The notes under the pieces: model-generated | What the model was told of the DNA's origin: nothing | Database searches by the model: none | The model's input: the letters and a program-made list of their open reading frames with translations, nothing else | In this document: one piece after another, positions 459-29,375 of the stretch | How positions within the stretch are numbered: position 1 is the stretch's first letter | Layout of the letters: each line of letters opens with the position of its first letter | Source of the DNA: a virus | Taxonomy: Duplodnaviria; Heunggongvirae; Uroviricota; Caudoviricetes | Virus record (IMG/VR): IMGVR_UViG_2563366852_000005 | Strand: one strand, 5' to 3' | DNA length: 29,375 nucleotides | Program-made: the position numbers and the translations under genes

Positions 459-677
459 TTACATCCACATAATTTGCTGCCCTGACGGCAACGGGTGCGG
501 TCTTACGGCGTGGACTTCTCCCGGCTTCACGATGTATCGCTGTACCGACTCATAAGTGATGAACGTGGCGCTGCAATTCACGTTCTGACACTGGTGATAA
601 CGCTCTTTTGTCGTGTCAGTGATATAGCGGCTTGTACGCGCATGTGCGGCATGCTGGCATAAAGGACAATGAAACAT
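459..677 (-). CDS. ogr: Ogr late-gene transcriptional activator (zinc-finger, 72 aa)
   Basis: Translation MFHCPLCQHAAHARTSRYITDTTKERYHQCQ... matches recalled P2 Ogr; CxxC...CxxC zinc finger; GGAAGAGG Shine-Dalgarno upstream of this ATG; longer ORF-track start rejected. Confidence 0.93.
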   Translation of the reverse strand: MFHCPLCQHAAHARTSRYITDTTKERYHQCQNVNCSATFITYESVQRYIVKPGEVHAVRPHPLPSGQQIMWM

Positions 678-758
678 CGCGAGCACCTCTTCCGGTTGTG
701 TTGATGGTGCCATTTTAGTTAATTTACCCTTATAAAACAAACAGATAAATAAAACACA

Positions 759-1922
759 TCACTCATCATCTTCTGTTTCGTACTCCACATCAGAAAGCCT
801 GACCTCAAGCTCTAAGGACGTCGTGAAGCCGCTATTATTCAGAAAATGTGTCACCTTAGTGATTGTCCAGTCCTGCTCGTCTATGACGCGCTTAAAGCCT
901 GACACTTTAACCGGTGTTTCCGTGTAAATATCTGCCCGACCGGTAGCCAGGCTGATGGAGAACTCCGCCACACCCCGTTGCAGTTTATCCCACTTCGCCT
1001 GGGCGGCACGCATGGCCTGTGCTTTCGTGGCATATACCGTGGTCAGGGCAAAAACGTTGTCAGCCTCACCGGCCATGTATTCACCTTCGCGCGCTTCCGG
1101 TACTTTTGGCGCTTTCTTCTGCGTGACTGGTTTCGCTTTCGGGTGCTCCAGTGCGCGCAGGTGTTTCTCTTTCTTTTTGCGTTTCAGTTTTACCTTCTGC
1201 TTTTGCGGCTTCGGGTCTTTGGTGTGTAACCACTTTGCCGTTACGCCGGTATAGGCTCCACGGTCAGCAATCGCAAAATGATGGCGGTCGCCGTCGCTGC
1301 GGGTTATGGTAATCTGCGGGATTTTCTTACCGCTGGCCGTCACCCCCTGCCCCGCCTTAAGAAATAACAGTTTTCCCATTTTTACCGACACCTCACCGCC
1401 GTTGCGTTCAGCAAGGCGGGTCAGGAATTTTGCATCAGACTCCTGCGACTGGTCGATGTGCGGGATTTTAATTCCGGCCAGTGACGGAGCAACACTGGCT
1501 TCCAGCTTGTTACGGGAGGCTATCGCCTCAACAATCGTACCGAGCGTGGTGTCATGCCAGGAGCCTTCCCGGCGGGAATTGAGCGTCCCGCGAAAATCTG
1601 CACTCCGGGCGCGGATGGTGACCACATCCGGCGCGCCCCGGTGTTCTACCTCATCAACGGTAAATTTCCCTTTGCATACCAGGGCAAAACCTTTCCAGCC
1701 GATATACACCGTCAGGACAGCGCCACGAATCGGCAGCTCGACCTGCCCGTCGGCATCGTTCAGTTCAATATCAAGCTGGTCAGCCTCAAAGCCCCGGTTA
1801 TCCGTCAGAGTCATGCTCATCAGACGGTCGCTGATATTGCCGGAAATATCCCTGCTGTCGAGCATCAGCATGTAATCCGGCGTCAGCGTACTGCCTGCAT
1901 CAAATGTCAGCGCATCCAGCAT
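759..1922 (-). CDS. D: Tail protein D (P2 gpD)
   Basis: 387 aa ORF in the conserved P2 position downstream of U; N-terminus MLDALTFDAGSTLTPDYMLMLDSRDISG as in P2 gpD. Confidence 0.9.
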   Translation of the reverse strand: MLDALTFDAGSTLTPDYMLMLDSRDISGNISDRLMSMTLTDNRGFEADQLDIELNDADGQVELPIRGAVLTVYIGWKGFALVCKGKFTVDEVEHRGAPDVVTIRARSADFRGTLNSRREGSWHDTTLGTIVEAIASRNKLEASVAPSLAGIKIPHIDQSQESDAKFLTRLAERNGGEVSVKMGKLLFLKAGQGVTASGKKIPQITITRSDGDRHHFAIADRGAYTGVTAKWLHTKDPKPQKQKVKLKRKKKEKHLRALEHPKAKPVTQKKAPKVPEAREGEYMAGEADNVFALTTVYATKAQAMRAAQAKWDKLQRGVAEFSISLATGRADIYTETPVKVSGFKRVIDEQDWTITKVTHFLNNSGFTTSLELEVRLSDVEYETEDDE

Positions 1923-2401
1923 TATCCCGCCCCCGTCATACCTGTGAATCTGGTCGCCATACTGCCAGCCTTACCGATGAGCGACTCCGCCTGTTTACCG
2001 ATATCGCCATAAAGCGCGGCCAGTGATTCATCAACGCGGGTGAGCGACAGCGTAAAATCAATTTTTCGGGGTGTGCCGTCTGCAAAGAAAATACTCCCTG
2101 TTTCACTCACCTTGCTAATGACATACATGCCGTAAATCATGCCAGTGCCATCCAGCAACGGCCACGCCCGGCCTTCATCTGCCATCAGCCTGAGCGTGGT
2201 CATCGTCAGCTTTCCGCCGGTCAGTTCGGGATAAAGCACACCGGCAAGCGTCATGTTTTCCTCACCCACACCGAGAAACTGGTAGGCATCCCGTTTACCG
2301 ATACGGGAATTTGACGGCCAGCGATAATCTGATTCACGCTGCATGGTCTGGTGTGGCAGCGTCTGGCGCATAAAAACAAACATACCTAACGCGAGCATCA
2401 T
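1922..2401 (-). CDS. U: Tail protein U (P2 gpU)
   Basis: 159 aa, synteny T-U-D, stop/start overlap with D. Confidence 0.9.
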   Translation of the reverse strand: MMLALGMFVFMRQTLPHQTMQRESDYRWPSNSRIGKRDAYQFLGVGEENMTLAGVLYPELTGGKLTMTTLRLMADEGRAWPLLDGTGMIYGMYVISKVSETGSIFFADGTPRKIDFTLSLTRVDESLAALYGDIGKQAESLIGKAGSMATRFTGMTGAG

Positions 2402-2415
2402 TTTTCGTCACCTCC

Positions 2416-4863
2416 TTAACCGTCATGCATCATGCTGGCACGGGCGCGCGCACGTTTGTCCCGCTCGTATTTTTCGAGCGCATCCTGTAACTGGCGGTCG
2501 AGCTGTGTCCCCGGCGCAGTACCACCCGTCAGGCTGATGTGATATTCGTTTTTACTCTGGTCTACATAAGAGCGGCCAGCCGGTGCCGTGACCGGCTGAT
2601 AAGCCTGATAACCTGCATAAGAGCTGGTCGCCGGAATATAACCACCGCTGCCATACGTGGCGGCTTGAGTTCTGGCGGCGGTCTGGTCAAGTGTGTCTGA
2701 CTCTTTGTTGATGACACCGAGTTTTTCCAGTACCCAGTCAATACCACTGCGCAGTTTGTTGAACGCATTAAGCGGCAGCATCAGCGCGTCAGCCAGTGCC
2801 TGCCCGAACATGACGCCCGTGTCACGGCAACGGTTCAGGGTGTCCTGGGTGGCTTTGACCGGGGCAATCAGGTTTTTAAACCACTGCCACGCGGCCTGTA
2901 ACTTTTCACCCAGCCAGTCAAACACCGGTTTAAGTGGCGTGAACAGTTCCCCCACCGGCGCAAATGCCGCTTTCAGCCCTTCAACCACACCGCCAAAAAA
3001 TGCGCTGACAGGCTCCCAGTATTTACGGATAAGTAACGCCCCGGCGACAATGGCGGCCACCACGGCCACTACCGGCCAGCTAATCGCCCCGATGGCCGTC
3101 ATAACGGCACTGCCAACCGTCGTGAAGATTGCCCCCATTGCGCCTGCTGCTGCGATAATGGCATTGATGCCGGTGATAACTGGCCAGGCTACGAGGCCAA
3201 TGGCACCGATGACACCAATCAGCGCCAGTGCACCACCGACAATGAGGCCGATGGTTGACGCCAGTGATTTGTTTTTCTGGATCCAGCCGTCGAGTTTTAA
3301 CACATACTTTGTGGCCGTCTGCGTGAGATTACGCAGTGCGCCTTCCTGCTGGTCAAACAGGTCAGTGCCAACAGCCTGATACGCTGACTGAAACGATTTA
3401 AAGTCGCCGCCGAGGTTATCCTGCATAACCTTAACCAGTTCTTCTGTTTTACCGTCAGATTCTTTAATCAACCTGGTCAGATTATCCAGCTTGCCGCTGG
3501 CTGCTGCTGTCATTAATACACTTGCTGATGAGCTGGCCTCTTCGCCGAATATTGTTTTCATGTATTCAGCGCGCTGCCCTGTTCCTAGTTTATTTTTTTC
3601 AAAACTCCGCTGAATTTCTTTCAGAATTGAAAAGACAGGTCGCGTATTACCTTTGCTGTCAGTTGTCTTTACGCCAAGCTCTTTAATAGCGTCATACGCT
3701 TTCCCGGTTGGTGCCTGCAAACGACTCAGTACTGCTCGACTTCCTGTGCCAGCCATAGACCCACTGATATTTGCATCGTGTAATGCACCTAACATTGCTG
3801 CTGTTTCTTCCAGGCTGACACCTGCATCTTTTGCCACTGGCCCGACATAGGTAAGTGAATCACTTAGTCCCTCGAATGTGGCTTGCGATTTATTCATCGT
3901 CATTGAAATAACATCAGCAATATGGGAAGCCTTATCGTCAGCAAGCCCGAATGCCGATTTTGTCCCAATAAGTAAAGTGGCGTTTTCCTCCATCGTTTTC
4001 TTGTTTGCCAGTGACATATTCAAAATGGCCGGTGTTTGTGCCAGGATGCCATTTTTATCCGCTCCTGATTTAGCCACGATGATTTGAGCTGCTGCTGCAT
4101 CATCCGCCGAGGCGGCGGTATTATCGCCGAGCTGGCGCGCCTGCTTGCGGAGCGCGGCCATTTCGGCAGAGTCTTTTGCCACTCCGAGCACGGCCTGTAA
4201 TTCTGAGTTTTTCTGCGCAAACTCATAACCGGGCATCAGCAGCTTAACACCAGCCATCGTTCCCGCCGCCGCAATCCCCACACCGGCAGCGCCCACTGAG
4301 GCCATATTTCCGGCCAGTTCCTTTCCGGCCTGATAACGCTGTTTTACTGCATTAAGTTTTGCCTGTTGCGCACTGACACGCGCCAGCGCGTCACGCTGAC
4401 GGTTAAGCTGTGCGGTGGTTTCACTGATACGGTTTTTCAGTCCCTGCTCATCATGTGCAAGATTGCGGGTATTAATTCCCACAGCGGCCAGTTCCCGCTG
4501 CTGGCGTTTAACGGAATCCGTCAGGCGGTTATATTTCGCCTGTAAGTCCTCCGCCGCACGCTTTGCGGATTCCAGCACTTTCGCCTGAGCACGGGTCGGA
4601 CGTTCAGTGTTTTTAAACTGTGTGGCAAGTGCTTCGGCTTCCTGCCGTGCCTTTTCAAGTGCATGACCAGTCACGGCAAGCTGTGCGCTGGTCTTGCGAA
4701 ATCCCTCAATACGGGATGCGTGACCGTTCAGCTCGCGCAGTGATTTTTGTGTTTCCCGGATATCCCCCGACAGCGACTTGCTCGCTGTGCGGATGGATTT
4801 AAACGGGCGGGATGCCTGGTCAACAGCCCTGAGCAATACCTGTAATTTTACATTGTTACTCAT
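2416..4863 (-). CDS. T: Tail tape measure protein (P2 gpT)
   Basis: 815 aa, coiled-coil N-terminal half, Gly/Ala-rich hydrophobic central segment, position after E/E'. Confidence 0.92.
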   Translation of the reverse strand: MSNNVKLQVLLRAVDQASRPFKSIRTASKSLSGDIRETQKSLRELNGHASRIEGFRKTSAQLAVTGHALEKARQEAEALATQFKNTERPTRAQAKVLESAKRAAEDLQAKYNRLTDSVKRQQRELAAVGINTRNLAHDEQGLKNRISETTAQLNRQRDALARVSAQQAKLNAVKQRYQAGKELAGNMASVGAAGVGIAAAGTMAGVKLLMPGYEFAQKNSELQAVLGVAKDSAEMAALRKQARQLGDNTAASADDAAAAQIIVAKSGADKNGILAQTPAILNMSLANKKTMEENATLLIGTKSAFGLADDKASHIADVISMTMNKSQATFEGLSDSLTYVGPVAKDAGVSLEETAAMLGALHDANISGSMAGTGSRAVLSRLQAPTGKAYDAIKELGVKTTDSKGNTRPVFSILKEIQRSFEKNKLGTGQRAEYMKTIFGEEASSSASVLMTAAASGKLDNLTRLIKESDGKTEELVKVMQDNLGGDFKSFQSAYQAVGTDLFDQQEGALRNLTQTATKYVLKLDGWIQKNKSLASTIGLIVGGALALIGVIGAIGLVAWPVITGINAIIAAAGAMGAIFTTVGSAVMTAIGAISWPVVAVVAAIVAGALLIRKYWEPVSAFFGGVVEGLKAAFAPVGELFTPLKPVFDWLGEKLQAAWQWFKNLIAPVKATQDTLNRCRDTGVMFGQALADALMLPLNAFNKLRSGIDWVLEKLGVINKESDTLDQTAARTQAATYGSGGYIPATSSYAGYQAYQPVTAPAGRSYVDQSKNEYHISLTGGTAPGTQLDRQLQDALEKYERDKRARARASMMHDG

Positions 4864-5283
4864 TCGTGTTTCCGCTTCGCCGGAGCGCCTTTTCGCGCCA
4901 TGTGATGAGTTCGGTCAGGCTCATGGGATACAGTTCTGATGGCGGCCAGTGAAATATCACTGCCACATCCGCCATCAGGTCATCGACCGAGAGATTTTTC
5001 GGAAACGTTACTGCACCGAGTTCGGCGACAAAAAACCGACCACCTTACCGGCCAGGGCCACAAGGTCAGGCAGTTCCAGCGCGGCGACTTCCTGCTCGGT
5101 CAGCATCGGTGCCGTCATGCGCGGCAGCACTTTAATCAGTGCATCGACTTCGGAGTTTGCGACCGCAGCCAGACTGACACCGCGCAGCGTCCCGGCATTG
5201 GGTTTCATCAGCGTGACCTGTTCGATAACCTGCTCACCACGCTTGACCGGATTGTCCAGGGTAATCACATTTTCTTTGTTCAT
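4856..5283 (-). CDS. E': Tail assembly chaperone E+E' made by programmed -1 ribosomal frameshift at TTTTTTG (minus-strand site = plus coords 5029..5035); extension ends ...WREKALRRSGNTNE, stop overlapping the T start
   Basis: Manual translation of the -1 frame from the slippery heptamer gives an open extension to a TAA at 4856..4858, overlapping the T ATG (ATGAGTAA); matches the known P2 E/E' arrangement. Confidence 0.8.
5008..5283 (-). CDS. E: Tail assembly chaperone E (P2 gpE)
   Basis: 91 aa MNKENVITLDNPVKRGEQV... ends ...GKVVGFLSPNSVQ; slippery GGTTTTTTG near its 3' end. Confidence 0.92.
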   Translation of the reverse strand: MNKENVITLDNPVKRGEQVIEQVTLMKPNAGTLRGVSLAAVANSEVDALIKVLPRMTAPMLTEQEVAALELPDLVALAGKVVGFLSPNSVQ

Positions 5284-5339
5284 GGTTTTCTCACTTCTGA
5301 ATCAGGGTTAACCGGTCAGCCAGGCTGACCGGATGAAAA

Positions 5340-5858
5340 TCACAGGCCGATATTGCGGCGGTGTTGCTCCAGCCGGTCGACGCCGTTCACCTTCTCAATC
5401 ATGTTGATGGTGTCGATTTCGACCAGCTCCTTACCGTCCATCGTCAGCCGGAAATAGGTGCAGACCACGGAGATTTTCGACTCGGTGTCTTCTCCCTGTT
5501 TACCCTCGCCGGTGTCGATTTCTTTCTGACGGCCACGCATGACCACTTCGACGGCCACCGTTTCGCCGGTATCGTCACGCTGGTAAGAGCCTGCAAAACG
5601 AATCGGCACGGCATCCACACCGGTTGCGGCGTAAAGTTCCCAGATAACCGAATCCGGGAAGCCCCCGAGCGACCACTCCATTGACAGCGCATCGTCATCA
5701 AGGCCGAGGTCTACCGGTGCGCTGCCGTTCATCCCCGCACCGCGATAGTTTTCGAGCTTACGGGTCAGTTTTGGCAGCGTGACGGACTTCGCGACGCCCT
5801 GATAGCTGTAGCCGTTCAGAAAGACGTTCATTAACTTGAGTTTGCGCGGCATTGCCAT
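5340..5858 (-). CDS. FII: Tail tube protein FII
   Basis: 172 aa MAMPRKLKLMNVFLNGYSYQG... as P2 gpFII; follows FI. Confidence 0.93.
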   Translation of the reverse strand: MAMPRKLKLMNVFLNGYSYQGVAKSVTLPKLTRKLENYRGAGMNGSAPVDLGLDDDALSMEWSLGGFPDSVIWELYAATGVDAVPIRFAGSYQRDDTGETVAVEVVMRGRQKEIDTGEGKQGEDTESKISVVCTYFRLTMDGKELVEIDTINMIEKVNGVDRLEQHRRNIGL

Positions 5859-5870
5859 CGGTCAGGCTCC

Positions 5871-7061
5871 TTAATTGCTGTTAACCGAGGTGACCAGACT
5901 TGCCAGGTATCTTGAAGTAATACGCTGGCGCAGGGTCAGGTTTTCGAGAGGAGGCACCGGGGTATAGTCGTAGTCGATATACAGTTTTCCGGCCTTGAGG
6001 GTTTCCGCATCATTGGCTTCTTCACTGAACCAGCATGTGCCATCCACGATATAACCGTTGCTTTTCAGTTCACGGAATTTGGCATTTATGCCGTCAACGA
6101 TGTCGCGAATCAGCGTTGCGGTGATGGGCTTATCAATAGCCCACATGTGCGCCTCAGCCATCGTGTCAGCCAGTACCTGCGCGGTGCGTGTGTAGCTTTC
6201 AAAGAGGAACAGTGGGTCATCGGAGCAGGTACGGTTACCCCAGAAACGGAAACCGTCGCGGCGAACCAGCGTTGTGACGCCTGCCTCGTTCAGCAGGTCA
6301 GCATCAGTGCCGGACTTCTGCAAATCCCAGAATACAGATGCGCTGATGCCAGTAACACCGTTTACCCCGACGTTGGACAGCGTTTTATGCCAGCCCTGCT
6401 CCTGGTCGATTTTAGCGCGCAGACCCAGCGCACGGGCGGTGGCATACGCGGTGGCGGTGGTGCTGGTGACCGTATCCCATGCGAGGAAATCCGGCCAGAT
6501 GACCATCAACTCACGCTGGCTGAAATTCTGGCGGTAGGCTTTCACCTCGGAAATGGTTTTACAGCCCCATGCGCTGATATACCCGAATGCATTCAGTTCC
6601 TGGCATACCGATGCCAGTGCGACGGCAACCTCTTTGGTGTCCAGCCCCGGCACACCAAGAATGCGCGGTTTAACGCCGGTAACCGACTCAGCCCCCATCA
6701 GGGCTTTCAGTCCGGTGTACTGACCGTTTTCGTCAGTGGTGCCGATGATATTGGAAACGGTCTGCGCGAGTTTCGTTTCCTCGTCGTCGCCGGTGCCGTC
6801 TTCAACACGCACGACAACGGTGACTGGTTTTGACTGGTCAGCGATGGCCTGCAACGACGCCGCCAGCGTGCCTTTTTTACCGGCCTTTGCAATTGCGCTC
6901 TGCACATTGGTAATCAGCACCGGTTTATTGAGGGGGAAGATTTCCGCATCCGCATCGCTGGCCGTGCAGACCATGCCGACAATGGCGGTGGATACGGTGG
7001 AAATGACACGGGTGCCGTCGTTAATCTCCAGCACCTGCACGCCGTGATGATAGTCACTCAT
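5871..7061 (-). CDS. FI: Contractile tail sheath protein FI
   Basis: 396 aa, MSDYHHGVQVLEINDGTRVISTV...; GGAG Shine-Dalgarno 8 nt upstream; synteny. Confidence 0.93.
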   Translation of the reverse strand: MSDYHHGVQVLEINDGTRVISTVSTAIVGMVCTASDADAEIFPLNKPVLITNVQSAIAKAGKKGTLAASLQAIADQSKPVTVVVRVEDGTGDDEETKLAQTVSNIIGTTDENGQYTGLKALMGAESVTGVKPRILGVPGLDTKEVAVALASVCQELNAFGYISAWGCKTISEVKAYRQNFSQRELMVIWPDFLAWDTVTSTTATAYATARALGLRAKIDQEQGWHKTLSNVGVNGVTGISASVFWDLQKSGTDADLLNEAGVTTLVRRDGFRFWGNRTCSDDPLFLFESYTRTAQVLADTMAEAHMWAIDKPITATLIRDIVDGINAKFRELKSNGYIVDGTCWFSEEANDAETLKAGKLYIDYDYTPVPPLENLTLRQRITSRYLASLVTSVNSN

Positions 7062-7193
7062 CCGTTTAACTCCGTGGTTAATGGGTGAGTGGTATTTTCA
7101 GTTGTGCCGGAGATGTCAGGCTATTTGTCCCGGTTGGCTAATCAACAGCACAACCACCGGTAAAGAAAAGGCGGGCAATCAGCCCGCCTGTGT
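7062..7193 (-). promoter_or_regulatory. G-FI intergenic region: expected Ogr-dependent late promoter for the FI-FII-E-T-U-D operon; empty Z/fun cargo slot
   Basis: Position relative to P2 operon structure; only 132 bp and no ORF. Confidence 0.5.
7162..7190 (-). terminator. Intrinsic terminator after G (stem GGCGGGC/GCCCGCC, loop, then TTTTCTTT on the minus strand)
   Basis: 7-bp GC stem at 7170..7188 immediately downstream of the G stop, followed by a T-tract on the transcribed strand. Confidence 0.7.
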
Positions 7194-7772
7194 TTATTGC
7201 GGTAGTTCCGGCCATTCAATATCCGGGGCATTTTCCGGCTGAACGCGATTCAGTAGCACACGGTATTTTTTCCAGTGTGTCAGGCTTAACTTTTCTTCCT
7301 CGGTAGCCATATCTAAATCGACAGCATCCTGCAGCGTGGCAATAATTTCACCTGCATATGCAATCAGCTCTTTCTTCTGAGAGTCAGCCGCTCTGACAAG
7401 CGCATCACGCTCTGCATTCTCATCATTCACCCACGCATTTCCGTTCCATTTCTGATAATCCCCATCCGGGGAAATGGCTGTCACGTCTGGAGGTAATGCG
7501 CCAAGTTCAGAAATATAAATGGCTGCTCCCGTTTTCGTTTCATAGACAGTCTTTCCGCGATGGTCTTCCATCAGTTCCCATTTCATTTCATCTGCATTGA
7601 AAACGGCTGCATAACCAGCAGGAATATCAGGCGGTGCAATATCTGTACTGTTTGCAGGCAGACCTGTATGCGGCGGAATATATGCGTCACTTTCACCAAT
7701 AAATTCATTGGTTCCATCAAGTAAATTGAAAACGCGGATAGTTTGTGCTTCTGCACTCATTCTGAAAGCCAT
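7194..7772 (-). CDS. G: Tail fibre assembly protein (P2 gpG / Tfa family)
   Basis: 192 aa directly downstream of the tail fibre gene with stop/start overlap; Tfa-like N-terminus. Confidence 0.85.
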
Positions 7773-10397: not shown

Positions 10398-10928
10398 TTA
10401 TCCGGGATAAACAGTAATAACATCACCATCACAGACCACACCGCCTGTATACAGATAGCCGGGAATGTCCTGGATAATGTTCAGACCGATAAGGTGGCGA
10501 CTTGCGGGTTTGGCATCGGCAATCAGCCGTTCCATTTCCAGATACATCTCCTCCGTGATGCCGCTTTCCAGTACGCCGATATCAAGGCGGAAGGTTCCGG
10601 GCGGGTCGTTTGTCTCCCACCATTCCTTTACGTTAATGAGATAGCCGAGCGGCTCCACCACACGCCGGATTGCGCCGACAGTGCCTTTATGACAATGAAT
10701 GAAATAGGCATCGCGGATAACGGCGCGTTTTGTCGCTTCCGGCCACTTTTCATCCCACCTGTCGACCGAAAACGCCCACGCCAGCCACGGCAGCAGATTT
10801 GCCGGACAGGAGTCCGGGTTCCACAGCTCACGAATACTGACCGGTGTTTTTTCAATTTCCGCACAGGCTTTTGCGGCGGCAACTTCAAGCGGTGATGAGC
10901 CGGTCGGCAGCAGGCGCGAATCACTCAT
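10398..10928 (-). CDS. I: Baseplate assembly protein I
   Basis: 176 aa MSDSRLLPTGSSPLEVAAAKACAEIEK...; synteny J-I-H. Confidence 0.9.
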   Translation of the reverse strand: MSDSRLLPTGSSPLEVAAAKACAEIEKTPVSIRELWNPDSCPANLLPWLAWAFSVDRWDEKWPEATKRAVIRDAYFIHCHKGTVGAIRRVVEPLGYLINVKEWWETNDPPGTFRLDIGVLESGITEEMYLEMERLIADAKPASRHLIGLNIIQDIPGYLYTGGVVCDGDVITVYPG

Positions 10929-14744: not shown

Positions 14745-14758
14745 GGTGTTTACTCCGT

Positions 14759-15537: not shown

Positions 15538-15540
15538 GCG

Positions 15541-17090: not shown

Positions 17091-17093
17091 CGG

Positions 17094-18167: not shown

Positions 18168-18225
18168 AGTTTTTCCTGAAATTAAGGGTTAATCGTGAAG
18201 GTTTTCCCGGACTGACTGACGCCGG

Positions 18226-19080: not shown

Positions 19081-19253
19081 TGTCAGGAGTCCTGAATAGT
19101 GATTAGAGGAGTCACATGTCGACATCAGTTTCCCGACGATGCGCATCCTCCGCCATCAGTCCCGGATGGCTTATCACTGACACAACAGCACCTTAGCGAA
19201 TCGCGGGGCGCGACTCAGTAGCCTTGCCGTGTATTCATCACGGCGAGGTATTC
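19081..19253. promoter_or_regulatory. Divergent late promoter region between O and P; contains palindrome ATGTCGACAT (19116..19125) and dyad GTGA-N9-TCAC (19099..19115)
   Basis: Position between divergent late operons; inverted repeats read directly; exact Ogr-box assignment not possible by eye. Confidence 0.45.
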
Positions 19254-22229: not shown

Positions 22230-22248
22230 GTGCTTTCCCCGCCTCGCC
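22230..22248. other. cos: cos site: 19-nt cohesive-end sequence GTGCTTTCCCCGCCTCGCC (reverse complement of the P2 cos GGCGAGGCGGGGAAAGCAC)
   Basis: Exact match to the P2 cohesive-end sequence as recalled from memory; located between Q and the old-side cargo as in P2. Confidence 0.75.
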
Positions 22249-22376: not shown

Positions 22377-22796
22377 CTAATCATCTTCTAAAGGTGGAAT
22401 TTTGATGCCACTAATTAGCAGTACTTTCCGGTATGCCTCAAAAATAATGTTGTGTGTTTTTTGTAAATCATCGAGCATTTTTTGCCGTCCTGCTGGGGTA
22501 TCTTTGGCGAAATTATGAGCGCGAAAAAAATCATGTGCCAAGTAGTTTCGAGCTGATAGAGCCAGTTCTACATGTTGTAGCGTTTCATCATCTGCCACCC
22601 CTTTTTTACGCAATAAATTGCTTAGTCTGCCTAATGTTAACTTATCAAATTTTAAGAATTTTTCTTTTAATGTTGGAATGTCTTCGCCTTGCTTCATTTC
22701 ATGTTCGATAAGGACATTAATCAGTTCAACTTCCAACAATTGTGCAGCTTCTGAGGTGTAACCGAACTTCCAAAAGACTTCATCAAGCGTTGCCAT
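22377..22796 (-). CDS. Hypothetical small alpha-helical protein with an HEPN-type R-N-x3-H motif (RNYLAH); candidate RNase toxin or abortive-infection effector in the tin/old cargo slot
   Basis: 139 aa from ATG at 22796 (ORF-track start 22805 is GTG); GAGTGG Shine-Dalgarno-like element upstream; about 35% GC versus about 52% for the phage backbone; motif read from translation. Confidence 0.6.
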   Translation of the reverse strand: MATLDEVFWKFGYTSEAAQLLEVELINVLIEHEMKQGEDIPTLKEKFLKFDKLTLGRLSNLLRKKGVADDETLQHVELALSARNYLAHDFFRAHNFAKDTPAGRQKMLDDLQKTHNIIFEAYRKVLLISGIKIPPLEDD

Positions 22797-22933: not shown

Positions 22934-23140
22934 CTATCGTCTGCGTGGTGGTGGCGTAACTCTTGATTGACCGATATGGTTAAACCGCCCGTAATTATCC
23001 CGGACTATTTCGGCACACACGACCAGCTCATCGGGCGTCAGATTTTCGTTGACCATAATCCGCTGTAAACGCTGAACAATAGCCATCAGCTTGATATTTT
23101 TAGTTTTATGGTGCGGTATCTCGCCTGGTATTCTGTGCAT
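22934..23140 (-). CDS. Small hypothetical protein (68 aa), translationally coupled to the upstream ASCH-like gene (TAATG overlap)
   Basis: ATG at 23138..23140 overlaps the TAA of the upstream gene; helical-looking sequence MHRIPGEIPHHKTKNIKLMAIVQRLQRIMVNENLTPDELVV... Confidence 0.4.
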   Translation of the reverse strand: MHRIPGEIPHHKTKNIKLMAIVQRLQRIMVNENLTPDELVVCAEIVRDNYGRFNHIGQSRVTPPPRRR

Positions 23141-23592
23141 TATCCAAGCCACCCGTTTTGCTGTGCACGCTCCATCTGTTCATCTGAATAGTTCCATGCT
23201 CCATCCGTGGCAACCATTGCCCCGCCAGACATCCCCGTCTCTGGTTCATACATAACAGCAAGGCCGAGCTGATGCATAATTTCATGATTAATTCTGAATA
23301 CCAGACCACGCTCACTAAGTTCTTTCCAGTTCACAATCTCATATGCGCCTGTATTAAGCCGCTCAATACTTAGCAAGACATAATCTTCCAGCCAGTCTGA
23401 CAGGTCAGTAACATCTGTTATCCGGGCTTCAACCTTTCGCCCCGTATACACACCCTGCACCCATTCATGCAAAATCAACGTGTCCCCGCGCTCATAATTA
23501 CGGTCATTTTTCCGAAACTCTGCACGTTTATGTCCTTCCAGCACAAGGTCGAAATATTTTGCGTGCAGCTTTACCTCGTGAATTTTTGCCAT
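23140..23592 (-). CDS. ASCH/PUA-like (DUF3850-like) domain protein with a C-terminal HEIMH (HExxH) motif, translationally coupled to A
   Basis: 150 aa from ATG at 23590..23592 overlapping the A stop (TAATG); N-terminal pattern KIHEVKLHAKYFDLVLEGHKRAEFRKNDRNYERGDTLILHEW...YTGR resembles ASCH-like phage proteins; C-terminal INHEIMHQLG. Confidence 0.6.
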   Translation of the reverse strand: MAKIHEVKLHAKYFDLVLEGHKRAEFRKNDRNYERGDTLILHEWVQGVYTGRKVEARITDVTDLSDWLEDYVLLSIERLNTGAYEIVNWKELSERGLVFRINHEIMHQLGLAVMYEPETGMSGGAMVATDGAWNYSDEQMERAQQNGWLG

Positions 23593-25877
23593 TATGTCCA
23601 CTCCATTACTGTTGAGAATCCCGGCCACTCATCAGCGACCGGATACGTGAATTTTTTCCCGTCGTAATTTACGGTTGCCCCACGCGCCAGCGCCTCAAGC
23701 TCCCATCGCTGAGGCCTGATACCGTTCTGAGCAAGGTCAACACGGATACGGGTAATTTGCATTCTTTCCGACCGGGTCAGTCTGGCCGATGGTGCAATTT
23801 CATGCGGTTTTAACGGGCTTCCGTTTCTTTGCTGACGATTTGGTGTTCTCATGTCGTGTTTTAATGCGCCCCTGAGCGCCCTCACGACCTCCTGGTCATT
23901 CCATTCGATAACACCGTCATCAACCAGATTAAGCACTGCTGCGGCGTGTTCAGAAGGTGTGGGAGCCGGTAACGAAGCATCACCGCCGGTGAACTTTCCA
24001 CAGTTATTGACAGGACTCCGAGGCGCGGCGATGCCGCTTTTTAAAGTCAAAGGCTCAACGACCGGAACTTTCGGCACAATGCGCCAGTCCGTCGTTCTGG
24101 TGATATGAATATGTCGCGCGCCGAGATGCGGCGCGTAAATGCCGACCACTCTCTCGACTTCTTCTTCGTACTCGTTAACGTCTTCCGACGGGCTACGGGC
24201 AACCCTGACAGTCTGACAATCGCGCGGGACATTTGCCCCACCCTGCGCGCTGATATACAACGCAAAATCACCACTGTCTGCGGCGGCGCGTGCAGCCTCG
24301 ACGCGCTCGTCAAACTCATCAGCAATGCTGACGCCGCGAGGCAATTTGCGTAGTTCACGGTAAGCCCCCATTGTCGGCAGACCAACCGTTTTAAATTGCG
24401 GAATGCGCCACGTTGACGCCCATGCGGTAACAGCCGCAGCAGTGTCTTTCAGCGGCCTGCCGGTATCGTTATCGAGCTGACCATCCAGTGCATAGCCGTC
24501 GATGTTTTTTGAGATGTATTTCGCGATATACCCCGCAGCACCGCCCCGGTTAAGGTGTTTTGCCTGAAAACGGTTTCGCGCGGCTCCTCTTTCGTCGCCA
24601 TCCTCTTTGAGCGCGTAGCGACGCATGATTTCGATAATCTGGTTACGCTGGCGTGGATTACAAAAAAGCATCATATGCCAGTGCGGCGTTCCGTCGTGGT
24701 GTGGTTCAACAACACGCAAACCGTAGGCCTGTAAATCATTATCCTTGAATGCCGTGCGCATCAGGCTCCAGATACGGCAGAGATAACGCTGCGCATCCTT
24801 TGGATTAAATGCCTCATCGTTCCAGCCGTGATTTAGCTGGACGGTTTTACTTTCGCCTTTTCTGACCTGACGTGTCGGGTGATACTTTGACGGCGCGGTA
24901 AGCGTGATAAACATCCCCACATCACCCTCTGCGGCGGCGTAACGCTCAATACCGGCGATGGTGTTCATCAGCTCCATCCGGCGAATTTCTGGATTTGAAA
25001 TACTGCCCATCACCTTACTGATAAGGTCGATGCGCTCGCCGGTTTCCTTGTTTTCAAGGTCACACGATTTAAGAAATTCCAGATTTGCCTGGCGGCGTGC
25101 ACGTACATCACGAATGGCATGTTTACTGGCATAAGGAGAACGGTCTTTATTGACCTCCCCGACAGCAATCAGTAACGCCTCATGCCAGCGCATGCGCTGG
25201 CCTTTGAGCTGATGAGTCCACCACTCATCGTTAAACAGACGGGCAATGGCAGAATACGCCTGCCTCGTGGTCATCTGTCCTTTACGGTATTTTTTCCAGT
25301 AGAGCGGGGAAATATTGAAAGCACGTGCAGCGCCAGCAACATGACCATACAGGTGAGCCTGCGCCTCATCCGTAAACAGCGATTCTTTTTCGCCATGCGC
25401 ATCCACCCAGGCATCGCTGAGTTCCTCATACATCATGAAAAGCTGCGATGAGATACGGGCGGCAAACTTTTTCAGCTCTTTGTCATTCATTCCAGGCAGG
25501 CGCGCATAGTGGTCACGCTCTGCCAGAAACAGCAACGACGCGTCGGTGTTCATTTCATGGCGCTGATTCACACGCTCAATGCGCGGCCATAAACGACGCT
25601 GAAAAGTGGATGTGAGGAAATAAAACCCGTGCACCGGGCTTTTATTGCGCCGGATGTAGTCATAGCGTGAAGTAAACAGCGAGCGCAAAAAGTAAGGCAG
25701 GCGGTTAATCGTGGATAAAACACCTTGCACCTGACGCATCTCGTCACGTGTAAGGGGTCTTTCGCGCCCGACAGCCTCGCGTGGCGCGTTCCATGCATAA
25801 GCACCGGTAAACGCCTTACCGGTGCCTGCGGCAAATGCTGACGGAGGGACAAAACGCCCGGAGGCTTTAACGGCCAT
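23592..25877 (-). CDS. A: Replication initiation protein A (rolling-circle nickase, 761 aa)
   Basis: MAVKASGRFVPPSAFAAGTGK...; start chosen to match P2 gpA length; ORF-track start at 25919 is an upstream extension. Confidence 0.93.
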   Translation of the reverse strand: MAVKASGRFVPPSAFAAGTGKAFTGAYAWNAPREAVGRERPLTRDEMRQVQGVLSTINRLPYFLRSLFTSRYDYIRRNKSPVHGFYFLTSTFQRRLWPRIERVNQRHEMNTDASLLFLAERDHYARLPGMNDKELKKFAARISSQLFMMYEELSDAWVDAHGEKESLFTDEAQAHLYGHVAGAARAFNISPLYWKKYRKGQMTTRQAYSAIARLFNDEWWTHQLKGQRMRWHEALLIAVGEVNKDRSPYASKHAIRDVRARRQANLEFLKSCDLENKETGERIDLISKVMGSISNPEIRRMELMNTIAGIERYAAAEGDVGMFITLTAPSKYHPTRQVRKGESKTVQLNHGWNDEAFNPKDAQRYLCRIWSLMRTAFKDNDLQAYGLRVVEPHHDGTPHWHMMLFCNPRQRNQIIEIMRRYALKEDGDERGAARNRFQAKHLNRGGAAGYIAKYISKNIDGYALDGQLDNDTGRPLKDTAAAVTAWASTWRIPQFKTVGLPTMGAYRELRKLPRGVSIADEFDERVEAARAAADSGDFALYISAQGGANVPRDCQTVRVARSPSEDVNEYEEEVERVVGIYAPHLGARHIHITRTTDWRIVPKVPVVEPLTLKSGIAAPRSPVNNCGKFTGGDASLPAPTPSEHAAAVLNLVDDGVIEWNDQEVVRALRGALKHDMRTPNRQQRNGSPLKPHEIAPSARLTRSERMQITRIRVDLAQNGIRPQRWELEALARGATVNYDGKKFTYPVADEWPGFSTVMEWT

Positions 25878-26142
25878 ATGAGCCAAAAGCCTCTGAGCAA
25901 CGCTTGCTGAGTTGCTCAACCTGCGCGTTTAAATCAGCAAAAGACTTTGCGCTTCCGGTCAGAATATCGTGATGCATCAGGCCGGAAACGAGCTGGCTTA
26001 ATTTCGGGTAATAACCAACCACCGCCAGCCATTCCTGACCGGCGTTTTTACCGCTTTCCGCTCTCTTTTTCTCGTGGAGAATAAACTGAAAGCTGTCACT
26101 GGTAACGACATAACGTTCGCCAATTTCAATACGAATACTCAT
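25867..26142 (-). CDS. P2 orf83-like hypothetical early protein
   Basis: 91 aa immediately upstream of A, overlapping its start; conserved early-operon position. Confidence 0.75.
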   Translation of the reverse strand: MSIRIEIGERYVVTSDSFQFILHEKKRAESGKNAGQEWLAVVGYYPKLSQLVSGLMHHDILTGSAKSFADLNAQVEQLSKRCSEAFGSYGR

Positions 26143-26363
26143 GCCGTTCTCCGGTAATGTTTGTTTTTTGCTTCAAAGACTGACTGACAGGAAACACAAC
26201 GCGTGGCTGACGGATAAGCCGCACGACGGGCAGCAGGTATTGGCGCATCACACTCTTCGCAAACCAGCGCAGAAGCACCGCAATGTTTTACCCTTGCCGC
26301 GTTAATCTGGCGCTCCAGTAATTCAGCCTGTTGTTCCTGAATAAAATCTACGTTGTCCGGCAT
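26139..26363 (-). CDS. P2 orf82-like C4 zinc-finger protein (DksA/TraR-like)
   Basis: 74 aa with CGASALVCEECDAPIPAARRAAYPSATRCVSC (CxxC-N17-CxxC); early operon. Confidence 0.75.
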   Translation of the reverse strand: MPDNVDFIQEQQAELLERQINAARVKHCGASALVCEECDAPIPAARRAAYPSATRCVSCQSVFEAKNKHYRRTA

Positions 26364-26668
26364 TACCAGTTCCTTTTGTCGTTCAGTTTTTTAAATTCAT
26401 CAGCGCAATAGCTGGCGATTTCTGTCGTTAATTTCGTCAGTTCATCCACGGAGGAAATTTGCTTGTGGAATACAGCGCGTTTAACAAGTAAATTGACCAC
26501 ATCAGACAGGAGGTTTAATTCACTCTGATAAATCGCGATAACAGATTCAGTTATTTCGCGTTTTTCTTTATCAAGACCAAGTTGAATAAGAGACAAATCG
26601 CCATTTTTCATAACGGCGATTTTTAAGGCATTGTTCAGTAAAACAACTGAACGAGAACAGGACATCAA
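26363..26668 (-). CDS. P2 orf81-like hypothetical early protein
   Basis: 101 aa; stop/start overlaps with neighbours. Confidence 0.7.
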
Positions 26669-26889
26669 AGCACCTCCCCGCGAGACAATCCGATGTTGTG
26701 AAATTTTTCCGACTCCTGACTGAGCAGCTCGACTATCTCCACGCGGGATAACTCCGCCTTTGTGATGTGGCGAATCATGGCGTCAAGATGAGAAAAAAAG
26801 CGCGTCGCTGCATCGGCCTGTGCTTCGGTTCTGGCCTGTTGCAGCAGTAATGCGTATTTACCGCACTGATTTTCAGAAACTGTATGCAT
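26665..26889 (-). CDS. P2 orf80-like hypothetical early protein
   Basis: 74 aa from internal ATG (MHTVSENQ...); ORF-track start at 26922 is possible alternative. Confidence 0.6.
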
Positions 26890-26952: not shown

Positions 26953-27453
26953 TTAATGCAGATATTGCTCTGGTTTTACCGATGTCAGAATTGTCGGTGC
27001 ATACTCAAACAGACTGAATAATTCACGTAATGCACGGAATAAAGCATCACGCCAGTAACATGATTCTTCATTAATTCGCCAGTATGGCTGGTTGAATTCT
27101 TTTTCTGTCAGTCGTGCATGCATAAATAAAGTACGACGCTGGCTGACTGTTAAAAAACTAATATATGCATACTCACTTGCACCGACCTGACGGCGTTTTG
27201 AGAATGCCCCACGCAATTCATCAATTGCACAAACCAGCCGTTCACGTTCGACATCGTTCATTTCTTCGAAACGCATCGTTGCGTGACGTTGTTTTAACTG
27301 CGCATGGAAGCAAACCGTTAGCCGTTCACGTTCCATCATCTGATTATAATAATCACATGTCTCCTGCCAGCGAGGGACGGCCAGATGCTTACCAATTATC
27401 CGGCGCATAGCTGCTGGCTGTTTTTCGACGAGATTAAGTGTCATCACTGTCAT
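26953..27453 (-). CDS. B: Replication protein B (helicase loader)
   Basis: 166 aa MTVMTLNLVEKQPAAMRRIIGKHLAVPRWQ... Confidence 0.9.
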   Translation of the reverse strand: MTVMTLNLVEKQPAAMRRIIGKHLAVPRWQETCDYYNQMMERERLTVCFHAQLKQRHATMRFEEMNDVERERLVCAIDELRGAFSKRRQVGASEYAYISFLTVSQRRTLFMHARLTEKEFNQPYWRINEESCYWRDALFRALRELFSLFEYAPTILTSVKPEQYLH

Positions 27454-27620
27454 TTCCAGACCCTCCGGCTTTTCAGAAAGGTCAGAGCCTTTTTTAACGG
27501 ACTCTGTTTTTTGGTACGGATAATGATTCCCTTGCGCCCCTTCCCGTGGGTGATGGTGAAGTCAATCGCCCTGGGGCTTTCGTTACGCAGTAACTGAGCA
27601 ATACAACGCGGTTCACTCAT
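27450..27620 (-). CDS. P2 orf78-like small basic protein
   Basis: 56 aa MSEPRCIAQLLRNESPRAIDFTITHGKGRKG...; starts just after the cox stop. Confidence 0.6.
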   Translation of the reverse strand: MSEPRCIAQLLRNESPRAIDFTITHGKGRKGIIIRTKKQSPLKKALTFLKSRRVWK

Positions 27621-27622: not shown

Positions 27623-27895
27623 TCACAACCCCATCCACAAAAGCCATGCATCACGCTGTTCAACCGGCCGGTTATAAAACGCCTCACGTACAGCGCGATT
27701 AAACTCTGGAATGAAAACCCATTTCTCACCGGCACGAGCCTTAGGCTTATTTGGATCTCGAAGCTCAATAACCGGTAGCTTGTTAGCCTTGATCATTTCT
27801 GTAACTGCGGTTTTTGGTTTACCCAATAAATCTGCAAATTTTTCCGCATGTACCGCATCGAGCGGGTACTTGATCACATAATCATTCGCTTCCAT
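27623..27895 (-). CDS. cox: Cox: excisionase/directionality factor and repressor of the lysogenic promoter
   Basis: 90 aa, first gene of the early operon, divergent from C; ends ...RDAWLLWMGL, as in P2 Cox. Confidence 0.85.
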   Translation of the reverse strand: MEANDYVIKYPLDAVHAEKFADLLGKPKTAVTEMIKANKLPVIELRDPNKPKARAGEKWVFIPEFNRAVREAFYNRPVEQRDAWLLWMGL

Positions 27896-28031
27896 CTATG
27901 TTACCCTCATAGGATCCAGCCCCTTAAAAACCGCTTGAAACCGTTTAAGCGGCGCTGGACTCGCGCCCGAAAAGGTTCTGGATTAATGACCTTTTTCGGG
28001 GAATATAGTCATTAAGTCAGGACTATGTCAA
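27896..28031. promoter_or_regulatory. Immunity switch region between cox and C (expected Pe/Pc promoters and operators); contains dyads ATTAATGAC/GTCATTAAG and CCGCTT-N-AAGCGG
   Basis: Position between divergent C and cox; inverted repeats at 27982..27990 / 28008..28016 and 27931..27952 read from sequence. Confidence 0.55.
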
Positions 28032-28325
28032 ATGAATATCGCACAGAAATTAAGAGCAATAAGAAAATCGGAAGGGCTAACTCAAGCAAAATTCAGTGAA
28101 ATCAGTGGAATAGCATTAGGGACGCTAAAGAATTACGAGGGAGGGCATCAAGACCCAGGCATCCAAGTTGTGTTGCAAGTCACCAACACACCTCAGTTTC
28201 AAAAATACACACTATGGCTTATGACAGATAAAACAGCGCCGGAAGCAGGACAAATCGCACCGGCTCTCGCACACATTGGGCCAGAGTCAACAGAATCCAG
28301 CCTCTCCGCGAAAAGGATTGGCTAA
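28032..28325 (+). CDS. C: Immunity repressor C (HTH)
   Basis: 97 aa; C-terminal half ...TPQFQKYTLWLMTDKTAPEAGQIAPALAH... resembles P2 C; N-terminal part divergent. Confidence 0.85.
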   Translation: MNIAQKLRAIRKSEGLTQAKFSEISGIALGTLKNYEGGHQDPGIQVVLQVTNTPQFQKYTLWLMTDKTAPEAGQIAPALAHIGPESTESSLSAKRIG

Positions 28326-28394
28326 CTCTATATAAAGATTACATTTTCACCATTTGCTTCCAGAATGGTGAATACAGCGCCGGAGGGCTTTCTT

Positions 28395-29375
28395 ATGGCA
28401 ATTAAGAAGCTCGATGATGGTCGCTATGAAGTGGACATTAGACCTCGCGGTCGCGATGGAAAACGCATCCGCAGGAAGTTTGAGAGAAAGGCTGAAGCAG
28501 TTGCATTTGAGCGATACACAATTGCCAATGCCAGCCAGAAAGAATGGGGAGGCCAGCGAGCAGACCGCCGAACGTTGACTGAGTTATTGGACATCTGGTG
28601 GAAATATCACGGACAAAACCATGAGCATGGAACAAAAGAGTTTAATCATCTGCTCAAAACTATCAGTGGAATAGGTGATATACCAGTTAGCCGGATGAGT
28701 AAAAGGGCTTTGATGGATTATCGCTCCGTGCGGCTACGTGATGGCATTAGTGCTGCAACGATAAATCGTGACATGTACCGATTGTCAGGCATGTTCACTA
28801 AATTAATTCAATTGGATGAATTTTCCGGGCAACATCCAATTCACGGACTGCCGCCACTGGCGGAGACCAATCCGGAAATGACGTTTCTGGAAAAATCAGA
28901 AATCGAAAAACTGTTAAATGTTTTGGTTGGTGATGACTTACTGGTCGCGCTTTTATGCCTAAGCACTGGCGGAAGATGGACGGAAGTTGCCACGCTAAAA
29001 CCAGCGCAGATTACAAGTTGTAGAGTTACCTTTTTGAAAACCAAAAACGGTAAAAAGCGAACCGTGCCGATTTCTGAGGAACTAGAGAAAAAAGTTAAAG
29101 AGGAGGCCAGCGCCAAATTGTTCAAAGTTGATTATGAGAAGTTTTGCGGGATTTTACGCAGAGTGAAACCTGATATACCACCCAATCAGGCAACCCACAT
29201 CCTGCGGCATACATTCGCAAGCCATTTCATGATGAATGGGGGCAATATAATTGCACTGCAACAGATTCTGGGACATGCGAGCATCCAGCAGACGATGGCC
29301 TACGCGCATCTTGCGCCGGACTACCTACAGAATGCCGTCGCGCTGAATCCTCTAAAAGGCGGAGTGACGTTATAA
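28395..29375 (+). CDS. int: Tyrosine integrase (P2 Int-like); alternative upstream ATG at 28365
   Basis: MAIKKLDDGRYEVDIRPRGRDGKRIRRKF...; C-terminal HxxR...Y catalytic region (ILRHTFASHF...AYAHL); stop is the last codon of the window. Confidence 0.92.
   Translation: MAIKKLDDGRYEVDIRPRGRDGKRIRRKFERKAEAVAFERYTIANASQKEWGGQRADRRTLTELLDIWWKYHGQNHEHGTKEFNHLLKTISGIGDIPVSRMSKRALMDYRSVRLRDGISAATINRDMYRLSGMFTKLIQLDEFSGQHPIHGLPPLAETNPEMTFLEKSEIEKLLNVLVGDDLLVALLCLSTGGRWTEVATLKPAQITSCRVTFLKTKNGKKRTVPISEELEKKVKEEASAKLFKVDYEKFCGILRRVKPDIPPNQATHILRHTFASHFMMNGGNIIALQQILGHASIQQTMAYAHLAPDYLQNAVALNPLKGGVTL

Follow-up and report, generated by a model that had tools for sequence, protein, structure and literature searches.

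Sequence analysis of an apparently complete Peduovirus prophage from the fieF/cpxP site of Escherichia coli

A 29,375-nt stretch of DNA (hereafter the window) was identified from its sequence as internal to a P2-family prophage that is complete, well preserved and located at the fieF/cpxP site of an E. coli chromosome. It belongs to the genus Peduovirus (P2-like myoviruses, Peduoviridae) and is an ordinary member of this textbook phage group. When all observations were read jointly, a complete Peduovirus prophage with a WΦ-type site and a P37-group switch, viable by inference and not SOS-inducible, was considered quite probable. P2-like prophages are present in most E. coli genomes: matches occurred in 4,338 of the 5,426 complete genomes searched, and 1,000 have at least 80% of this prophage. 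Little of this is new for phage biology, since integration site, switch type and defence hotspots have already been published; the practical value lies in a correct annotation, as a complete prophage that is flanked at fieF/cpxP by a 47-bp att repeat and is predicted to be heteroimmune to P2 and WΦ.

Boundaries and integration at fieF/cpxP

A sequence-only reading had placed the start of the element at position 459. This start was wrong, as the ORF at positions 1-408 and a terminator at 425-448 are also of phage origin. The prophage extends past both ends of the window, so that no att site lies within it. The att sites, whose cores fall outside the window, were observed in near-identical public E. 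coli contigs, in which exactly this 29,375-nt stretch has fieF to its left and cpxP to its right (GCA_000408805.1, 0 mismatches in 6,981 nt; GCA_043015385.1, 1-2 mismatches per piece compared with the window). These contigs carry two copies of a 47-bp core, one lying 162 nt beyond the left end of the window and the other 115 nt beyond its right end; the direct repeats agreed at 46/47 positions, and at 47/47 in another lysogen. The same 47-nt core is present in attP of Yersinia phage P37 (NC_070907; host Y. pestis EV76) and of WΦ (Wphi, NC_005056), whose published prophage site in E. coli W is cpxP-fieF (PMC3032704). The reconstructed empty site was uninterrupted in 4,593 of the 5,426 complete E. 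coli genomes, MG1655 included. By these comparisons attB is a 47-bp sequence in the terminator common to fieF and cpxP, the integrase is a tyrosine integrase of the WΦ type, and the whole element measures about 29.7 kb.

28365-29375, + strand: int, tyrosine integrase of 336 aa (the start annotated in WΦ, here at 28395, gives 326 aa)

Int showed Pfam Int_N and Phage_integrase domains and was identical to WΦ Int at 317/326 residues (97%) and to P37 Int at 328/336. In an exact look-up the 326-aa form (start 28395) was on record and the 336-aa form was not. Scans of the window for tRNA genes and Rfam families found nothing, indicating that integration is not at a tRNA site and that no known RNA family is present in the window. 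Logan contigs of about 29.7 kb were considered as excised circles and rejected: at 29,712 nt they are as long as the prophage interior with 30 nt of each core added, the length that a break of a k=31 assembly at the att repeat would give.

Conservation of the P2 gene set

To analyse gene content, the 42 reference proteins of P2 (NC_001895) were all searched against the window by tblastn. The essential P2 genes were complete and collinear in P2 order, and the window showed neither frameshifts nor premature stops nor IS elements. Q, P, O, N, L, X, Y, K, lysA, lysB, lysC, R, S, W, J, I, FI, FII, E, T, U, D, ogr, orf78, B, orf80-83 and A were all matched end-to-end and ungapped at 87-100% identity; M differed by an indel of two residues (245 aa, against 247 aa in P2), and 205/211 residues of V aligned to P2 V. 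No match in the window was obtained for orf30, fun(Z), tin or old, which are optional genes of P2. Synteny of the Q-P and O-N-M-L capsid-packaging block and of the tail operons was kept, with full-length genes.

425-448, both strands: bidirectional rho-independent terminator with a 10-bp stem, common to the ogr/F operon and ORF135
459-677, - strand: ogr, zinc-finger late-promoter activator, 72 aa, with its promoter up to 758
759-7061, - strand: F operon, tail; full-length ungapped matches to P2 (91-100%)
759-1922 (D), 1922-2401 (U), 2416-4863 (T), - strand: F operon genes
4856-5028 (E'), 5008-5283 (E), 5340-5858 (FII), 5871-7061 (FI), - strand: F operon genes
7058-7173, - strand: late promoter pF with Ogr-binding site, 114/116 identical to P2 17540-17655
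7194-12819, - strand: V operon, baseplate and tail fibre (tblastn, Pfam)
7194-7772 (G, 192 aa), 7772-10387 (H, 871 aa, C-terminus variable), 10398-10928 (I), - strand: V operon genes
10921-11829 (J), 11834-12181 (W), 12178-12819 (V), - strand: V operon genes
12820-12885, - strand: S-V intergenic region with pV promoter region; P2 orf30 absent
12886-19080, - strand: O operon, head, lysis and tail completion; full-length P2 matches (94-100%), ATG starts and stops checked
12886-13338 (S), 13331-13798 (R), 13761-14051 (lysC), 13906-14331 (lysB), 14319-14744 (lysA), - strand: O operon genes
14759-15256 (K), 15256-15537 (Y), 15541-15744 (X), 15744-16253 (L), - strand: O operon genes
16353-17090 (M), 17094-18167 (N), 18226-19080 (O), - strand: O operon genes
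19112-19207, unstranded: divergent late promoters pO/pP with a shared Ogr-binding site, 95/96 identical to P2 3040-3135
19254-21026, + strand: P, terminase ATPase, 590/590 identical to P2
21026-22060, + strand: Q, portal, 96% identical to P2
22066-22081: terminator tQ, downstream of Q
22230-22248, - strand: cos, 19-nt cohesive end GGCGAGGCGGGGAAAGCAC, next to portal gene Q, exact 19/19 match to P2 cosL/cosR
23592-25877, - strand: A, rolling-circle replication initiator, 761 aa, 97.9% identical to P2 A
23986-24049: ori nick region inside A, 63/64 identical to P2
25867-27620, - strand: early operon, 97-100% identical to P2
25867-26142 (orf83), 26139-26363 (orf82), 26363-26665 (orf81), - strand: early operon genes
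26665-26889 (orf80), 26953-27453 (B), 27450-27620 (orf78), - strand: early operon genes

Gene overlaps were of the same lengths as in P2 (1 nt at D/U, H/G, K/Y, L/X and P/Q; 4 nt at V/W; 8 nt each at J/I and R/S; 13 nt at lysA/lysB). Across 28 collinear genes (19,905 coding nt), 845 nucleotide differences from P2 were counted, with a dN/dS of 0.10 and 0 nonsense changes, where about 29.5 would be expected from random changes. Together, the complete collinear genes, the low dN/dS and the absence of stops indicated purifying selection rather than reading frames left open by chance. The sequence-only reading had described the structural, lysis, packaging, replication and regulatory genes as intact and of P2-like lengths, their coupling overlaps as preserved, and the element as devoid of IS insertions and pseudogenes. 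The tblastn comparison, the overlap lengths, the lack of any transposase or IS seen in the window and the lack of nonsense changes bore out this description, and the alignment to P2 that it had named as a check for frameshifts and premature stops found none. Structural intactness could thus be read from the DNA itself, from which viability would follow by inference.

Regulatory sites and programmed features were likewise conserved. The terminator at 425-448 was identical to the P2 ogr terminator, the ogr promoter was conserved, and Ogr was identical to that of P2 at 72/72 residues. The E/E' -1 frameshift site, at the slippery sequence GGTTTTTTG (about position 5028), was conserved relative to P2, and the E+E' frameshift product was open and 142/143 identical. 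Positions 12800-12900 were identical (101/101) to the viable phage WΦ, and the cos flanks matched P2 at 198/221 positions. In A, the active-site motif GYIAKYISK was conserved and the active-site tyrosines were kept. The Z/fun hotspot was empty, with a G-FI gap of 132 nt. H was P2-like for its N-terminal 207 aa alone, yet forms a single 871-aa ORF, and G is a diverged 192-aa Caudo_TAP protein. The exact H protein was found in 7 contigs, each time followed by the same 192-aa G. Many isolated phages shared about 95-96% nucleotide identity over 88-92% of a 25-kb query; among isolated phages the H C-terminus and G gave partial matches only.

Two alternatives to a viable prophage were weighed. Origin of the window from a free phage, as a virion or replicating genome, would accord with the lack of host DNA and of an att site within the window itself, yet it is extremely improbable: the window is opened in the att region, which leaves int at one end and ORF135/ogr at the other, cos is internal, whereas virion DNA would end at cos, and the exact stretch lies between two chromosomal genes in the contigs described above. 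A cryptic prophage that merely looks intact, in which a missense or regulatory change or an unproductive tail-fibre combination blocks formation of infectious particles, is unlikely, although function is not provable by sequence. The H C-terminal part and G (7194 to about 8436) occurred together with ORF139 in no isolated phage genome of the collection, and relatives do decay, with ISEc12 inside terminase gene P in a relative in E. coli strain 1436 and an internal stop that makes the ASCH gene of relative L001 a pseudogene. Decay of this kind is opposed here by the dN/dS value, by the absence of nonsense changes or frameshifts among the 845 differences, by the conservation of every checked cis site, of the catalytic motifs in A and of the C-terminal region of Int, and by recurrence of the exact H+G pair in several independent assemblies. 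A probably functional temperate P2-like phage, as the sequence-only reading had proposed, is supported as far as its genes, cis sites and precise, att-flanked insertion in near-identical genomes go, and because its integration and immunity module is also present in the virion-derived genome of P37.

Lysis-lysogeny switch, immunity group and inducibility

The switch region was read directly from the sequence.

27623-27895, - strand: cox, 90 aa, Pc repressor and excision directionality factor; Pfam Phage_Cox (PF10743)
27896-28031, unstranded: switch region with face-to-face promoters
28026-28031 (-35, TTGACA) and 28002-28007 (-10, TATATT), - strand: promoter Pe, consensus-like, adjoining the C start
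27983-27990 and 28008-28015: 8-bp inverted repeat in the switch region
28032-28325, + strand: C, immunity repressor, 97 aa; helix-turn-helix only (Pfam HTH_3 and HTH_19)

With int 40-70 nt after C, the layout was that of a P2-type C/Cox switch. C was identical to the P37 protein at 93/97 residues (95.9%), to WΦ C at 69/97 (71%) and to P2 C at 46%; for Cox these values were 89/90, 76/90 (84%) and 46%. The C-cox spacer was 133/136 (97.8%) identical to P37 and could not be aligned to WΦ or P2. Based on a published criterion for immunity groups (C at least 95% identical and an alignable C-cox spacer; PMC3448106), the prophage would belong to the P37 group and WΦ to a different one. Int, C and Cox were just 52%, 46% and 46% identical to those of P2, which points to heteroimmunity and a different att site; the prophage is accordingly predicted to be heteroimmune to both P2 and WΦ.

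Comparison with known phages showed both shared and differing features. P2 shares order, lengths and overlaps of structural, lysis, packaging, replication and late-control genes, the identical 19-nt cos, the conserved ori, late promoters and E/E' frameshift, and the C/Cox switch type; it differs in the H C-terminus and G, in having orf30, fun(Z), tin and old, in lacking ORF135, ORF139 and ORF68, and in its larger genome (33.6 kb vs. about 29.7 kb). WΦ shares Int, the att core and site, the absence of orf30, an identical S-V intergenic region and gp92, the counterpart of ORF68, but differs in hotspot cargo and tail fibre. P37 shares Int, C, Cox, spacer, att core and ORF135 between attP and ogr; in contrast, its gpA-gpQ hotspot is occupied by a methyltransferase gene together with an ORF of 670 aa, PAPS reductase is encoded upstream of A, and its tail fibre genes H/G are different. 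The SOS-inducible P2-like phages 186 and DuoHS resemble the prophage in their late genes, which are homologous, in A-type replication and in the Ogr/B type of late activator. They also have a 192-aa CI, Apl and CII, as well as a tum gene under LexA control located between A and cos; the prophage lacks all of these.

The prophage had also been called likely inducible, which was unsupported by its P2-type switch. No LexA box (CTGT-N8-ACAG) occurred in the window, the best relaxed candidates departing from the 20-nt consensus at 8 or more positions, and tblastn (E ≤ 10) found no homologue of Tum, 186-type CI, CII or Apl in the window. Pfam did not find a peptidase (self-cleaving) domain in C, and the place of tum in 186, between A and cos, here holds ASCH, ORF68 and ORF139. 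These observations argue against an intact prophage that is DNA-damage-inducible like 186, Fels-2 or DuoHS, a reading that we regard as very unlikely even though some P2-like prophages are SOS-inducible via a LexA-controlled Tum antirepressor and the window contains several small ORFs without known function. These ORFs might conceivably include an antirepressor, and induction by a signal unrelated to SOS is likewise conceivable.

By established knowledge, P2 is the classic non-inducible prophage, for which Bertani's 1968 paper "Abortive induction of bacteriophage P2" is cited. In DuoHS, the one P2-like prophage tested, induction by mitomycin C needs tum and a cleavable LexA (PMC12055606). Excision of P2 from the chromosome occurs only "with a low frequency" (PMC2995052), and peduoviruses were recovered from supernatants of untreated cultures (PMC12945033). 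Since no tie of the switch to the SOS or DNA-damage response was visible, spontaneous release rather than induction is expected. As in P2, the predicted behaviour would be non-induction by UV or mitomycin C and spontaneous release at low frequency. The expected lack of response to mitomycin C matters for induction or curing plans and for use as a helper of P4-like satellites.

In the proposed life cycle, the small P37-group C repressor would maintain lysogeny by blocking the early promoter Pe, while Cox, opposing C, would shut Pc and direct excision. Once Pe fires, B and A would replicate the excised circle by a rolling circle from the ori inside A, and Ogr would then switch on the four late operons. 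Terminase P/M would cut at cos, and holin, endolysin and spanins would lyse the cell. A P4-type satellite antirepressor could possibly derepress the prophage.

Cargo genes

Three small cargo genes, ORF135, ORF139 and ORF68, stand in place of orf30, fun(Z), tin and old of P2; it would be reasonable to include them in screens for defence or lysogenic conversion.

1-408, + strand: ORF135, cargo between attP and ogr; phrog_3807, signal-peptide-like N-terminus, two invariant Cys
22377-22796, - strand: ORF139, 139 aa, small and all-helical, in the gpA-gpQ (tin/old) defence hotspot
22934-23140, - strand: ORF68, homologue of WΦ gp92, phrog_11386
23140-23595, - strand: orf91-type ASCH/DUF3850 protein, 151 aa, intact; Pfam DUF3850, DUF7415 and ASCH

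ORF139 contains an invariant R-N-x-L-x-H motif. The HEPN superfamily is marked by an R-x4-6-H motif in an all-alpha bundle, and ORF139 is possibly HEPN-like. Its family is large and uncharacterised (1,444 representatives). Profile searches against PDB sequences returned nothing meaningful, a Foldseek search against PDB gave no significant match, and no MNT antitoxin partner was found. A "HEPN domain-containing protein" of a relative was rejected as the counterpart of ORF139, being a different, 440-aa gene. That ORF139 is an undescribed single-gene HEPN-type anti-phage system, an abortive-infection RNase, is a tentative and rather doubtful proposal.

ORF135 and ORF139 had no match in Pfam, PADLOC or NCBIfam. 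ORF135 was identical at 134/135 residues to gp16 of the virion genome of P37, where it lies between int and the tail genes; in prophages it always adjoins ogr, 288 nt from fieF. Its AlphaFold model (pLDDT 41) was too poor to use. The exact ORF139 protein always lies between ORF68 and portal gene Q in P2-like prophages, the position at which P2 has tin and old and P2-like phages keep defence systems.

Gene content and cis-acting sites

The 42 annotated proteins of phage P2 (NC_001895) were searched against the window with tblastn. Q, P, O, N, L, X, Y, K, lysA, lysB, lysC, R, S, W, J, I, FI, FII, E, T, U, D, ogr, orf78, B, orf80-83, and A all aligned end to end, without gaps and at 87-100% identity. 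M differed from its P2 counterpart by a 2-residue indel and V only in its last residues, while H shared a conserved N-terminal 207 aa with P2 and beyond it remained one open frame (871 aa in total) containing Collar and fibre-repeat domains. G (192 aa) carried a complete Caudo_TAP domain (Pfam), and the E+E' product, which depends on -1 frameshifting at GGTTTTTTG (a conserved site), had an open frame and was 142/143 identical to P2. Gene overlaps (1, 4, 8, and 13 nt), start codons, and stops were all as in P2. No IS element was found in the window, and its orf91-type ASCH gene, which has an internal stop in one relative's copy, was intact.

Comparison of 28 genes collinear with P2 (19,905 nt) yielded 845 differing positions, with a dN/dS of 0.10. 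No frameshifts or premature stops were found; none of the changes was nonsense, whereas approximately 30 stops were expected from random substitutions. These results upheld the sequence-only reading in its claims that essential genes were intact and of P2-like length, that coupling overlaps were preserved, and that IS insertions and pseudogenes were absent. As judged from sequence, the prophage is structurally intact, and it is probably viable and spontaneously released. The region from 7194 to approximately 8436 (minus strand), covering G and the C-terminal ca. 220 aa of H, constitutes a host-range module, for which isolated phages (P24A7b) gave partial matches only and which recurred exactly in several E. 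coli assemblies.

Cis-acting sites were closely similar to those of P2:

Cis-acting sites compared with P2
22230-22248: cos, 19 nt, identical to P2
Inside A: ori nick region, 63/64 identical to P2
pO/pP activator region: 95/96 identical to P2
pF: 114/116 identical to P2

The ogr promoter and terminator were near-identical to those of P2, and the active-site motif GYIAKYISK of A was retained. P2 orf30 had no counterpart in the window in the P2 protein search, so the pV region differs from that of P2; it was identical (101/101) to that of the viable phage WΦ (NC_005056).

Prophage boundaries and attachment site

The start of the element had been placed at 459, which proved wrong because the ORF upstream of this position is also phage-borne:

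1-408, plus strand: ORF135, cargo gene (attP-ogr interval)
425-448: bidirectional terminator on which ORF135 and ogr converge

ORF135 was 134/135 identical to a gene of Yersinia phage P37 (NC_070907), whose genome record shows it flanked by int on one side and the tail genes on the other, and in every prophage examined it adjoined ogr, 288 nt from host fieF. Together with the shared terminator, these observations indicated that the window lies wholly inside the prophage and includes neither att site.

Near- and fully identical contigs were located by exact-protein look-ups. In GCA_043015385.1 the span from ORF135 to int was exactly 29,375 nt, with 1-2 mismatches per fetched piece, and GCA_000408805.1 showed 0 mismatches across the final 6,981 nt of the window. 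An att partner, whose absence was to count against the earlier reading, was found in the near-identical contigs as a 47-bp core, GATAAAAAAAACCCCCACA(G/T)CATGTGGGGGAAGACAGGGATGGTGTC, repeated outside the window, 162 nt to the left of the first position and 115 nt to the right of the last. In these contigs the two copies differed at one position (46/47), and in another lysogen they were identical (47/47). This core was also present in the attP regions of WΦ and of P37; in P37, attP corresponds to both arms of the prophage joined together. The high identity of Int to WΦ Int (317/326) agrees with this sharing of the core. When an empty site was rebuilt from the left flank, a single core, and the right flank, it occurred without interruption in 4,593 of the 5,426 complete E. 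coli genomes, MG1655 included. The WΦ prophage of E. coli W has been located between cpxP and fieF (PMC3032704).

Three Logan contigs (L016, L017, and L022; 29,712-29,747 nt) were considered as evidence of excision and rejected: they end 30-31 nt into each att core, because the 47-bp repeat exceeds k-1 and short-read assembly breaks there. Outside the window, tandem TGTCCACATAG(T/C)GTCCACA motifs occurred directly after int and upstream of ORF135 (6996-7014 in contig L014 and 5887-5905 in contig L007). These are probably arm-type binding sites for Int in a WΦ-type attP.

The prophage totals approximately 29.7 kb, and records of isolated relatives measure 28.9-29.5 kb. Many isolated Peduovirus phages, including P24A7b, vB_YpM_50, and P37, matched the window at approximately 95-96% identity over 88-92% of a 25-kb query, and prophage matches occurred in 4,338 of the 5,426 genomes. 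A scan of the window found neither tRNAs nor Rfam families. The element is an ordinary Peduovirus prophage with the WΦ attachment site and P37-type immunity, one more of a very well known kind.

Immunity module and inducibility

Int, C, and Cox were only 52, 46, and 46% identical to those of P2. Relative to WΦ, identity was only 69/97 for C and 76/90 for Cox, and the C-cox spacer could not be aligned. Under the criterion of 95% or greater for membership of an immunity group (PMC3448106), these identities class the phage as heteroimmune to both P2 and WΦ. In contrast, C (93/97), Cox (89/90), and the spacer (133/136) closely matched P37, so that the same module occurs in a phage isolated as such.

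The early promoter Pe was consensus-like (TTGACA, 18 nt, TATATT) and abutted the C start. An 8-bp inverted repeat, TTAATGAC / GTCATTAA, flanks the Pe -10 at 27983-27990 and 28008-28015, positions that in WΦ hold two direct-repeat operator half-sites. Such a repeat arose in approximately 4% of shuffles; an inverted repeat here would be atypical of C repressors of the P2 family, whose binding sites are direct repeats.

The prophage had also been described as likely inducible, a claim that found no support. The switch was of the small-C/Cox type, as in P2, and Pfam detected in C only an HTH domain, without a self-cleaving peptidase domain. In phage 186, induction runs via LexA-controlled Tum; tblastn found no homologue of 186 Tum, CI, CII, or Apl in the window. 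CTGT-N8-ACAG did not occur in the window, and relaxed LexA-box candidates there departed from the consensus at 8 or more positions. Abortive induction of P2 was reportedly described by Bertani in 1968. In the P2-like prophage DuoHS, mitomycin C induction was abolished by deletion of tum or by uncleavable LexA (PMC12055606). Exit of P2 from its host chromosome is described as occurring "with a low frequency", and the epsilon antirepressor of P4 derepresses P2 (PMC2995052); supernatants of untreated E. coli isolates readily yield Peduoviruses (PMC12945033). The small-C/Cox switch without Tum or a LexA box, together with the DuoHS and P2 precedents, suggests that the prophage is probably not SOS-inducible, while spontaneous release would be expected.

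Cargo genes

No counterparts of fun(Z), tin, or old were found in the window by the P2 protein search, and the G-FI gap measured only 132 nt. The gpA-gpQ region, where P2-like phages have their principal hotspot for defence genes (PMC9122126; PMC13586616), contained the ASCH gene, ORF68 (a counterpart of WΦ gp92), and ORF139:

22377-22796, minus strand: ORF139, 139 aa, gpA-gpQ hotspot

ORF139 had no match in Pfam, PADLOC, or NCBIfam. Its predicted structure was all-helical and confident (pLDDT 92), and an HEPN-like R-N-x-L-x-H motif (R83 to H88) was invariant. The family comprised 1,444 cluster representatives; 1 of 40 distant relatives matched Pfam HepT-like, and no antitoxin-like partner was adjacent to ORF139.

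With its signal-peptide-like N-terminus and two cysteines that were invariant in the alignment, ORF135 resembles a small exported protein; its structure model (pLDDT 41) was unusable. Only 13 homologues were found, the named sources all being Enterobacterales (Salmonella, Klebsiella, Citrobacter, Serratia, and E. coli). Its location between attP and ogr is absent from the hotspots given in PMC13586616.

In E. coli strain 1436 (contig L020, 19252-23611), a prophage closely related to this one and inserted at the same attachment site carried ISEc12 inside terminase gene P and, in its gpA-gpQ hotspot, a gene for a 440-aa HEPN-domain protein. It illustrates decay and cargo turnover within the lineage of the window.
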